Shown: positions 16,247-50,024 of the stretch, one piece after another
Layout: every line of letters begins with the position of its first letter
Numbering within the stretch: position 1 is the first letter of the stretch
Sequence record: OM386662.1
Source: Escherichia phage vB_EcoM_ESCO47
Strand: one strand, 5' to 3'
Length of the DNA: 64,000 nt
Notes under the pieces: generated by a model
The model's input: only the letters and a program-made list of their open reading frames with translations
What the model was told of the DNA's origin: nothing
Databases searched by the model: none
Translations under genes and position numbers: made by a program

Positions 16247-17926
<1,680 letters not shown>

Positions 17927-24779: not shown

Positions 24780-24826
24780 TTGTACAAACTCTTGGGAGCA
24801 GAGTATAATGCTCCTATGGACAATAA

Positions 24827-25743
<917 letters not shown>

Positions 25744-30388: not shown

Positions 30389-30754
30389 ATGAACTACACC
30401 AACTTCGAACGCAAATATGTTTCTAACGGTATCGCTGGTTCTATTGATACGATTTGCTTATGGAAACATAACAATGGTTCAGTATGTGAAATTGAGCAGT
30501 ATATGACACCTAATTATGTTTATATGCGATTTGAAAATGGTATCACCCTTTCAATTACAATGGAAGGTTCCAACTTCAAAATCGCTCTGGATGATGACTT
30601 CCGTCAACGTGATTTAGGTACTCATCCTTGTTGGAATGGTGATAATCGTAAGCTTCTGGTTAAAACTTGGATTCGCCATATTCTGAGTAATAGAGCTAAA
30701 CCTGAACATCTTGAAGCAATCTTTGATGTAGTTCTTAACGAATTCGATATTTGA
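30389..30754 (+). CDS. hypothetical early protein (30.x)
   Basis: ORF 30296..30754; ATG at 30389 chosen because the early promoter and GGAGAA SD lie directly upstream. Confidence 0.6.
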   Translation: MNYTNFERKYVSNGIAGSIDTICLWKHNNGSVCEIEQYMTPNYVYMRFENGITLSITMEGSNFKIALDDDFRQRDLGTHPCWNGDNRKLLVKTWIRHILSNRAKPEHLEAIFDVVLNEFDI

Positions 30755-30765
30755 TCTAACAAACA

Positions 30766-30779
30766 GGGGCTTCGGCCCC
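30766..30779 (+). terminator. UUCG hairpin after ORF 30389..30754 (weak U tract)
   Basis: GGGGC-UUCG-GCCCC. Confidence 0.35.
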
Positions 30780-30795
30780 TATTGAGGAAATTAAA

Positions 30796-30990
30796 ATGAA
30801 TTTATTTGTATCGCAAACTGTCCGGTTAAAAGGCGATGGAATTCCCGGAATGATTTCTAAAGTGTTACCTGCATTTAAATTGGGAGATATTCAGATCAAA
30901 GAAACCTATGTGGTCTTATGGGTAGACGGTACTGAAGATGTTCGTATGGGTTCTGAATTAGCAGTAATCAAATGTTTAAAGCGAGGATAA
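30796..30990 (+). CDS. hypothetical protein
   Basis: 64-aa ORF with GAGGAAA SD. Confidence 0.45.
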   Translation: MNLFVSQTVRLKGDGIPGMISKVLPAFKLGDIQIKETYVVLWVDGTEDVRMGSELAVIKCLKRG

Positions 30991-30991
30991 T

Positions 30992-31102
30992 ATGATTAAG
31001 AAGCTAATCCAAAAATTGCTTGGCACTGAAATAGTTGAAGTTACTTATCGTGTGACTGACGTAAGCCCACGGACCCGAAATATTGGACCGTACTAAAACA
31101 AT
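30992..31102 (+). CDS. small hypothetical ORF (36 aa)
   Basis: ATG with GAGGA SD 6 nt upstream, fills gap; speculative. Confidence 0.3.
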
Positions 31103-31115
31103 TGAGAGATTCATT

Positions 31116-47231: not shown

Positions 47232-48362
47232 ATGGCTTTTACAGTTGATATAACTCCTAAAACACCAACAGGGGTTATTGATGAAACCAAACAGTTTACT
47301 GCTGCACCTAGTGGTCAGGCTGAAGGTGGAACTATTACCTATGCATGGAGTGTAGATAATGTTCCTCAGGAAGGATCAGAGGCAACTTTTGATTATGTGT
47401 TAAAAGGACCTGCTGGTCAAAAGACTATTAAGGTAGTTGCAACAAATACTATTCCTGATTCTGAAGCTGAAACAGCTGAAATTAGTACAACTATTACAGT
47501 TCAAAACAAGACACAGACAACTACCTTGGCAGTAACTCCTGATAGCCCCGCGGCTGGAGTAATCGGAACAGCCGTTGAATTTACCGCTGCTTTAGCTTCG
47601 CAGCCACCGGACGCAAACGCTACTTATCAATGGTATGTAGATGATTCTCCTGTGGACGAAGCAACTTCTGCTACATTCAATTACACTCCTACCACAAGCG
47701 GAGTTAAAACAATTAAGTGTGTGGCTCAAGTAACCGCGACAGATTATGATGCAAAGGAAGTTACTTCGAATGAAGTATCATTAACGGTTAATAAGAAGAC
47801 AATGAATCCACAGGTTACATTGACTCCTCCTTCTATTAACGTTAAGCAAGATGCTTCAGCTACATTTACCGCTAATGTCACTGATACTCCAGAAGAAGCG
47901 CAAATTGAGTATTCATGGAAGAAAGATTCTTCTCCTGTAGAAGGGACAACTAATGTATATACCGTTGATACCTCATCTATTGGAAGTCAAACTATTGAAG
48001 TTACTGTAACTGTTACTGCTACTGATTATGATAGCAAAACTATTACAGCAGAAGGTCAAGTTCAGGTAACCGATAAAGTTGCTCCGGAACCAGAAGGTGA
48101 ATTACCTTATGTTCATCCTCTTCCACATCGTACTTCAGCTTACATCTGGTGCGGTTGGTGGGTTATGGATGAAATACAAAAAATGACTGAAGAAGGTAAA
48201 GATTGGAAAACTGAAGATCCAGATAGTAAATACTACCTGCATCGTTACACTCTTCAGAAGATGATGCAAGACTATCCGGAAGTTGATGTTCAAGAATCAC
48301 GTAATGGATACATCATCCATAAAACTGCTTTGGAAACTGGTATCATCTATACATATCCATAA
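47232..48362 (+). CDS. hoc: Hoc, highly immunogenic outer capsid protein
   Basis: 376 aa (T4 length), repeated Ig-like beta-rich modules, terminator after stop. Confidence 0.85.
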   Translation: MAFTVDITPKTPTGVIDETKQFTAAPSGQAEGGTITYAWSVDNVPQEGSEATFDYVLKGPAGQKTIKVVATNTIPDSEAETAEISTTITVQNKTQTTTLAVTPDSPAAGVIGTAVEFTAALASQPPDANATYQWYVDDSPVDEATSATFNYTPTTSGVKTIKCVAQVTATDYDAKEVTSNEVSLTVNKKTMNPQVTLTPPSINVKQDASATFTANVTDTPEEAQIEYSWKKDSSPVEGTTNVYTVDTSSIGSQTIEVTVTVTATDYDSKTITAEGQVQVTDKVAPEPEGELPYVHPLPHRTSAYIWCGWWVMDEIQKMTEEGKDWKTEDPDSKYYLHRYTLQKMMQDYPEVDVQESRNGYIIHKTALETGIIYTYP

Positions 48363-48365
48363 TCG

Positions 48366-48395
48366 AAAGGGGCTTCGGCCCCTTTCTTCGTTTTT
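48366..48395 (+). terminator. intrinsic terminator after hoc
   Basis: GAAAGGGGC-UUCG-GCCCCUUUC then U-rich. Confidence 0.65.
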
Positions 48396-48463: not shown

Positions 48464-48658
48464 ATGAGAGTTGAAGTTGAAGTTTATACATTACATGAGG
48501 CGGGATTTTCATTCGTAGAAATTGCTCAAAAAATCGGTTTACAACCTAAAGAAGTTGGATTACTATGGACTAAAGCCGAGACAGCTCGGTCAAAGTTTAA
48601 AGCAAAAGAAAAAGTTGTATACCGTAAACGTCTGATTAATAAAAAGGTGAAGAAATGA
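48464..48658 (+). CDS. hypothetical protein (24.3 position)
   Basis: ORF 48458 starts at TTG; ATG at 48464 gives 64 aa; basic C-terminus. Confidence 0.5.
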   Translation: MRVEVEVYTLHEAGFSFVEIAQKIGLQPKEVGLLWTKAETARSKFKAKEKVVYRKRLINKKVKK

Positions 48659-48906
48659 GTTTTGCACAGGAATTAAGAGAAAGGGCTCTGGCCACTAAAG
48701 CCAATTTGTTGAGTGATTTTATTACTAACTTCTCAGTAATAGCAGAGAAAGCTGCTGACAAAGGTCAGACATAATTCACGTACTATCCATCAAAGAATGA
48801 TTTAACTATCACCGAGCAAATCGGGCAATGGTTACGTGATAATGGCTTTCAGTATAAAATTAATCATGACCAGCGTGATGGGCACTGGATAGAAATCAAG
48901 TTCTAA
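48655..48906 (+). pseudogene. 24.2-like ORF interrupted by in-frame TAA (ochre) at 48772-48774
   Basis: ATG 48655 opens 39 codons, then TAA, then 43 further sense codons in the same frame to TAA at 48904-48906; no start codon for the downstream part. Confidence 0.35.
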
Positions 48907-49025
48907 TATGCTTTACATTTTTTGATGGTATAATGAATCTAGGTTCTATCCATTCAAATTAAACATCTGGTCAGAGACAGAGTCTCTGCTAATTATTTTG
49001 ATATTATTATTTATAATGGTGATTT

Positions 49026-50024
49026 ATGTTTAAGAAATACAGCAGTCTTGAAAACCACTACAACTCTAAGTTTATTGAAAAACTCTACACTAATGGTTTG
49101 ACTACTGGTGTTTGGGTAGCACGTGAGAAAATCCATGGGACTAACTTCTCGTTAATAATTGAACGTGACAACGTCACATGCGCCAAGCGCACAGGCCCTA
49201 TTCTTCCAGCAGAAGATTTTTATGGTTATGAAATCGTACTCAAGAAGTATGATAGAGCTATTAAAGCCGTTCAGGAATTCATGTACACAGCTCGAGCCGT
49301 ATCATATCAAGTATTCGGTGAATTCGCTGGCGGTGGAATCCAGAAAGGTGTTGACTACGGTGAAAAAGATTTTTATGTGTTCGATATCCTTATCAATACA
49401 GAAAGTGGTGATAATACGTATTTGACCGATTACGAAATGCAAGATTTCTGTAATGAATTCGGTTTTAAAATGGCACCAATGCTTGGTCGTGGAACATTTG
49501 ATGCTCTTATCACTATTCCAAACGACCTTGATTCCGTCTTAGCCGCTTATAATGCTACTGCGTCAGAAGACCTTGTCGAAGCAAATAATTGTGTATTTGA
49601 TGCTAATGTTATTGGTGATAATACTACGGAAGGTTATGTTCTGAAGCCTTGTTTCCCTAAATGGCTGCCAAACGGTACTCGTGTAGCTATTAAGTGCAAG
49701 AACTCTAAATTCAGTGAAAAGAAAAAGTCTGATAAGCCTATTAAAACTCAGGTTCCATTAACAGAAATTGACAAAAACTTGCTTGATGTTCTAGCTTGTT
49801 ATGTTACATTAAATCGTGTTAATAATGTTATTTCTAAGATTGGGACTGTAACGCCAAAAGATTTTGGCAAAGTGATGGGATTGACTGTTCAAGATATTCT
49901 GGAAGAAACTTCTCGTGAAGGTATTGTATTAACATCATCTGATAATCCGAATCTTGTTAAGAAAGAATTAGTCCGAATGGTGCAAGATGTTCTGCGTCCT
50001 GCATGGATTGAATTAGTATCATAA
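49026..50024 (+). CDS. rnlB: RNA ligase 2
   Basis: 332 aa; N-terminal KIHGTN adenylation lysine motif. Confidence 0.9.

Follow-up and report, generated by a model that had tools for sequence, protein, structure and literature searches.

A probable recent nonsense mutation in the gene 24.2 homologue of Escherichia phage ESCO47

Gene 24.2 of phage T4 (NP_049791.1; phrog_2416; precomputed Pfam PF26862) is a known conserved hypothetical gene, which lies in the T4 genome in the order hoc, 24.3, 24.2, rnlB, 24. Its product, gp24.2, is a protein of 92 amino acids with a 9-residue N-terminal extension and a C-terminal W...G...DQRDG.W.EI.F motif. Within the genus Mosigvirus, intact homologues are encoded by RB69 (AAP76091.1) and by vB_EcoM-172859UKE1 (UKE1; QZI80113.1). 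A literature search on gp24.2 and on 24.2/rnlB found nothing relevant. In phage vB_EcoM_ESCO47 (ESCO47), the homologous gene shares with T4 the gene order, the C-terminal motif, and about 55% identity over residues 2-83, and it shares with the intact Mosigvirus genes its length and its neighbours. It differs from them in one decisive base, a T at a position where the intact Mosigvirus genes carry a C, and as a consequence of the resulting stop codon only 39 of 83 residues would be made. This situation recalls the classical amber and ochre mutants of T4, in which likewise a single transition converts a glutamine codon into a stop codon and yields a truncated polypeptide, but those are conditional-lethal laboratory mutations kept on a suppressor host, whereas the ochre codon described here would be a spontaneous change in a dispensable gene.

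The DNA analysed here, referred to as the window, is a stretch of 64,000 nucleotides from the sequence record of ESCO47 (OM386662). This phage, with a genome of 162,477 bp, was isolated from horse dung, plaque-purified, and sequenced by Illumina MiSeq (2x250), with SPAdes as the assembler. It replicates on the avian-pathogenic E. coli (APEC) strain BEN4358 and is one of eight phages in a cocktail (PMC10269720). The paper describing it makes no mention of a stop codon in 24.2. It lists ESCO47 as a Mosigvirus in its tables, yet one sentence on synteny refers to "Dhakavirus ESCO47", a minor inconsistency (PMC10269720). By megablast, the window belongs to the genus Mosigvirus (RB69-like), and its best relative is UKE1, with 94.7% identity over 20 kb.

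The gene order in the window is that of T4. Members of the gp24.2 family are found between 24.3, which encodes a DUF2774 protein, and rnlB, downstream of hoc, as in T4, Merlin, Virsaitis27, and HMGUkp2, and the interrupted frame of ESCO47 occupies this same position. Hoc, gp24.3, the 39-residue stump of gp24.2, and RnlB of the window are exact protein matches to the GenBank entries UPW39467.1 to UPW39470.1. The features of the locus are the following:

47232-48362: hoc, encoding the Ig-repeat protein Hoc, a single intact ORF of 376 aa (ORF list and Pfam)
48464-48658, plus strand: gene for the gp24.3 homologue (DUF2774, 64 aa; Pfam DUF2774 E=8.6e-31; phrog_1566; exact match to UPW39468.1)
48644-48650, plus strand: Shine-Dalgarno-like AAGGTGA, 4 nt 5' of ATG 48655, read from the sequence and of putative function
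48655-48774, plus strand: truncated 24.2 ORF, 39 codons and the premature TAA, encoding the predicted N-terminal two-helix segment alone (product UPW39469.1)
48772-48774, plus strand: premature ochre codon, CAA (Gln40) to TAA through a C-to-T transition at 48772, from alignments with relatives
48775-48906, plus strand: 24.2 remnant, codons 41-83 and the original TAA, predicted to be untranslated; conserved beta-alpha-beta-beta C-terminal part (W59, G64, DQRDG72-76, I81)
48972-48988, plus strand: terminator-like hairpin CAGAGAC-AGA-GTCTCTG with a T-rich tail, between 24.2 and rnlB, from a consensus scan and of putative function
49026-50024: rnlB, encoding an Rnl2-type RNA ligase (ORF list and Pfam)
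Strand opposite to 24.2: gene for the gp24 vertex protein

The TGA stop codon of the gp24.3 gene visibly overlaps the start codon of 24.2 (ATGA). The terminator consensus scan returned 4 sites, compared with 0.2 expected in shuffled sequences. Directly 3' of the 24.2 stop codon, at 48909-48934, there is a TGCTTTA-N13-TATAAT element, which is not among the sites listed by a sigma-70 scan. It resembles a T4 MotA-dependent middle promoter (MotA box) and would drive rnlB. Given this MotA-like element and the terminator-like hairpin at 48972-48988, expression of rnlB should be independent of 24.2. Another strong terminator-like hairpin, GAAAGGGGCTTCGGCCCCTTTC followed by a T-run, is located 3' of hoc at 48365-48386. 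The annotation of UKE1 splits hoc into two CDSs, with 259 and 186 aa (L009 48174-49591; MZ234025.1 109673-111090), and since the window has one intact ORF of 376 aa at this place, hoc may be disrupted or rearranged in UKE1.

From ATG 48655, the 24.2 frame of the window runs through 39 sense codons to TAA 48772-48774 and then through 43 further sense codons to a second TAA at 48904-48906. Its conceptual translation reads MSFAQELRERALATKANLLSDFITNFSVIAEKAADKGQT up to the first stop and FTYYPSKNDLTITEQIGQWLRDNGFQYKINHDQRDGHWIEIKF between the first and the second, and on re-reading, the coordinates and translation that a first-pass annotation had given for this interrupted ORF proved exact. The program-made ORF list contains, for this frame, the 39-codon ORF only. 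Reading the remainder of 24.2 beyond the premature TAA, we found ATC, ATT, and ATA in frame but no ATG, GTG, or TTG, in agreement with the earlier statement that the downstream part has no start codon of its own, and expression of the C-terminal half by re-initiation is thereby ruled out. At the local base composition, about 5-6% of stops would be followed by at least 43 open codons through chance, so that by itself the open frame is weak evidence. The case is decided by homology, namely by the single uninterrupted 83-codon CDS that relatives have at the same place.

In these relatives, 24.2 is annotated as one uninterrupted CDS of 252 nt; two of their records leave the gene unannotated, though it is intact there. 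Intact Mosigvirus 24.2 genes share 90-97.6% DNA identity and 94-99% protein identity with the window copy. Each of the 20 full-length relatives inspected, which comprise 17 tabulated Mosigvirus loci and three more (L030-L032), has CAA (Gln) at codon 40, and so do two partial contigs, both of which had been retrieved with a search pattern containing CAA. Compared with the 17 tabulated loci, the gene (252 nt) has a single base that is private to the window, T48772. An allele-specific megablast was made against the INPHARED collection, without the ESCO47 record, using 55-nt queries in which the variable base lay inside every 28-nt seed word; the C allele was found in 42 phage records and the T allele in none. 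Searches with degenerate patterns did not detect the TAA allele in JGI metagenome contigs or GTDB genome contigs, while the pattern for the CAA allele matched 4 metagenome contigs. The TAA pattern was likewise not found in the viral contigs of IMG/VR, but the CAA allele is absent there too, so this negative result carries no weight. Because relatives carry CAA, because the allele searches retrieved the C allele only, and because no other base of the gene is private to the window, the TAA at codon 40 is, as far as sequence comparison can tell, a single C-to-T transition that has so far been seen in this phage alone. The ochre codon reported to split the ORF thus stands where relatives have CAA, and homologues do not end at the position of the first stop but run through the full length. 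This also lends support to the first of the explanations offered in the first-pass annotation, a nonsense mutation that created a pseudogene.

The profile of phrog_2416 matched the conceptual 83-aa translation over positions 1-83 (E=2.8e-34), and T4 gp24.2 (54.9% identity in tblastn) as well as more than 500 other T-even-type records aligned with it over residues 2-83. The initial description of a small 24.2-like ORF between hoc and rnlB is borne out by this identity with T4 gp24.2 and by the shared gene order. In a family alignment that took in sequences from Mosigvirus, Tequatrovirus, Moonvirus, Winklervirus, and a Klebsiella phage, the invariant positions were mostly located past the stop (Y44, W59, G64, D72, Q73, D75, G76, and I81). 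Far from lacking conservation, the segment downstream of the stop is conserved better than any other part of the family. The C-terminal motif (W59, G64, D72-Q-R/K-D-G76, I81) is present in the DNA at 48775-48903 and, being 3' of the premature stop, would remain untranslated. An uninterrupted frame of about 83-120 codons is expected for the gp24.2 family, and in the window this frame is broken by the TAA at codon 40. The window copy of 24.2 is therefore an apparent pseudogene allele, a disrupted member of the gp24.2 family. According to an AlphaFold2 model of an intact homologue with 95% identity (pLDDT 75), the protein begins with two helices (residues 3-13 and 17-35), followed by a strand (40-43), a helix (50-62), and two further strands (66-72 and 76-82); the stop would thus remove the entire predicted alpha/beta part, composed of strand, helix, and beta-hairpin.

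Purifying selection on 24.2 is strong overall, with pN/pS values of 0.04-0.15. For codons 41-83, pN/pS was 0.040 between the window and its relatives and 0.037 among the relatives. The window copy thus shows no excess of non-synonymous change, which indicates that the lesion is recent or else an artefact. We consider it likely that the ESCO47 homologue of T4 24.2 recently acquired a nonsense mutation at 48772, which turned CAA into TAA (Gln40 to ochre). As expected for a recent nonsense pseudogene, the gene is a single base off the intact orthologues, it shows no further decay, and its downstream part has no start codon. Under this interpretation, translation would begin at ATG 48655, coupled to the overlapping stop codon of 24.3, and would presumably terminate efficiently at UAA-U after 39 residues, yielding a product that consists only of the poorly conserved N-terminal helical segment. 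For lack of a start codon past the stop, residues 40-83, which form the conserved C-terminal domain, would not be synthesised, and for this reason the ESCO47 allele of this small accessory gene would be null or cause a severe loss of function. The phage seems to tolerate the lesion, which suggests that the gene is dispensable: ESCO47 is a plaque-forming phage that multiplies on its hosts and belongs to a therapeutic cocktail.

The full 83-aa gp24.2 could in principle still be produced if the UAA were leaky or if an ochre suppressor tRNA were provided by the phage or the host. The frame past the premature TAA is indeed open and undecayed, and ESCO47 reportedly has 3 tRNAs (PMC10269720), compared with 2 in UKE1, the extra one lying outside the window. 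A programmed recoding site would be expected, however, to have a conserved stop, a leaky context or a stimulatory element, and a cognate suppressor tRNA. The stop is missing from every relative examined, hence there is no conserved recoding site, and its context, UAA-U, is the commonest one among genuine terminators in the window (23 of 63 long-ORF stops). In E. coli, termination is most efficient in this very context. Moreover, 47 of the window's 63 long ORFs use TAA as their stop codon, so that an efficient ochre suppressor would extend most phage proteins. No tRNA genes were detected in the window, and the whole UKE1 genome was found to contain no suppressor tRNA but only tRNA-Met(CAT) and tRNA-Arg(TCT). 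Readthrough, which the first-pass annotation had listed as another option, is thus disfavoured by the non-conservation of the stop, by its context, and by the failure to find a suppressor tRNA in these searches, and we regard production of the full-length protein as extremely improbable. The lesion in ESCO47 24.2 is most probably an ordinary strain-specific gene inactivation rather than a recoding site.

A different question is whether the T is real. The true ESCO47 population might have CAA, with the T in the consensus being an error or a minority variant that became fixed in the amplification for sequencing. It fits such an origin that the TAA allele is known from one record only and that the sequence past the stop is wholly undecayed. 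In addition, the window contains a second single-base lesion, located in a homopolymer run, which could hint at imperfections of the assembly:

16247-16488, plus strand: disrupted DUF5417 gene, between the gene for the gene-32-like ssDNA-binding protein and frd

This gene is frameshifted by a 1-nt deletion in an A-run near 16349, where the window reads GAAGAAAATTACG and UKE1 reads GAAGAAGCTTTACG. The Pfam profile of DUF5417 matches with its positions 1-41 in the ORF 16247-16474 and with its positions 52-90 in another frame, in the ORF 16360-16488. At this site, the window is one base shorter than more than 130 Mosigvirus records, and the shifted product is deposited in GenBank as ESCO47_00184, a unique protein of 75 aa. 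On the other side, the consensus was built by SPAdes from MiSeq reads (2x250) of a purified phage, a setting in which substitution errors are rare (PMC10269720), and for this reason a sequencing error behind T48772 is unlikely. Beyond the two lesions, the UKE1 CDSs that could be matched in the window (85 of the approximately 90 annotated) revealed no in-frame stop or frame break, the in-frame stop being confined to 24.2. Furthermore, independent truncating lesions of 24.2 occur in other isolates and assemblies, demonstrating that such alleles do exist. Taken together, we judge it unlikely that the population carries CAA, and we retain the recent nonsense mutation as the preferred explanation. 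Several small UKE1 CDSs have no counterpart in the window (near window positions 16480, 24780-24960, and 30750-31110; L009 15475-15729, 24073-24563, 30539-31153, and 31606-32064) and represent gene-content differences of T-even hyperplastic regions.

The other truncated alleles came to light in the 90%-identity protein cluster of the 39-aa stump. This cluster holds three of them, which differ from one another in sequence background and all have CAA at codon 40:

L031 1000-1140: AAG to TAG at codon 47 (amber), contig from run SRR15275230
L030 88-249: GAG to TAG at codon 54 (amber), contig of ENA ERZ27233373
L032 801-962: +1 T frameshift after codon 49, isolate phage AV116 (OR352946.1, WPK35435.1)

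As in the window, 24.2 is inactivated past the N-terminal helices in these phages, which are otherwise intact; their lesions differ from the ochre codon of the window and are independent of it. Truncated alleles amount to about 4 contigs, compared with more than 460 contigs in the cluster of intact proteins. They are thus rare yet recurrent, a pattern that fits a dispensable accessory gene. A T4-type 24.2 homologue encoded on a Logan contig of 3808 nt (P0005) leaves the family after approximately residue 35 and ends at 59 aa, and its sequence is consistent with a frameshift.

Recurrence of this kind could also mean that loss of the C-terminal domain is selected, for example because it permits escape from a host defence or immunity system sensing this domain, or that the N-terminal peptide of 39-53 aa functions on its own. 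Four independent lesions within codons 40-54 in Mosigvirus (ochre 40, amber 47, frameshift after 49, and amber 54) as well as the apparently frameshifted T4-type allele would be compatible with this idea. However, clustering within codons 40-54 is expected from the way in which the alleles were retrieved, since all of them are members of one 90%-identity cluster whose representative has 53 aa and since very short ORFs go uncalled, and it is probably an ascertainment effect. The scarcity of truncated alleles relative to intact ones and the strong overall purifying selection on 24.2 also speak against selected loss, and defence-related models (PADLOC) gave no match to gp24.2. We consider selected loss or a stand-alone peptide very unlikely.

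The truncated product is already present in GenBank, where it is mis-described as a separate protein of 39 aa, "hypothetical protein ESCO47_00233" (UPW39469.1), which we located through a protein cluster look-up; no contigs encoding the 39-aa product were found in an index that does not include ESCO47. This entry is the N-terminal stump of gp24.2 and merits a disrupted-gene flag. Beyond such annotation hygiene, the finding has little consequence. Nevertheless, ESCO47, a phage of an anti-APEC cocktail, would constitute a natural knockout, suggesting that plaques can form on its laboratory hosts without the C-terminal domain of gp24.2, and together with the three other truncated alleles it provides a small hint of conditional dispensability, which might guide a functional screen.

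With regard to the function of gp24.2, Pfam searches gave a match to DUF4304 below threshold and nothing else. A Foldseek comparison of the gp24.2 model with the PDB returned an R3H domain as the best match (E=0.012, TM 0.44-0.54). An exhaustive HMMER search over 1.84 billion representative proteins yielded 6 gp24.2 matches only. Two giant proteins, P0007 (2776 aa) and P0009 (6651 aa), each contain 6-7 separate stretches that match approximately residues 16-73 of gp24.2 (E=1e-5 and 2e-4), which suggests that they may contain a repeated domain distantly related to gp24.2.
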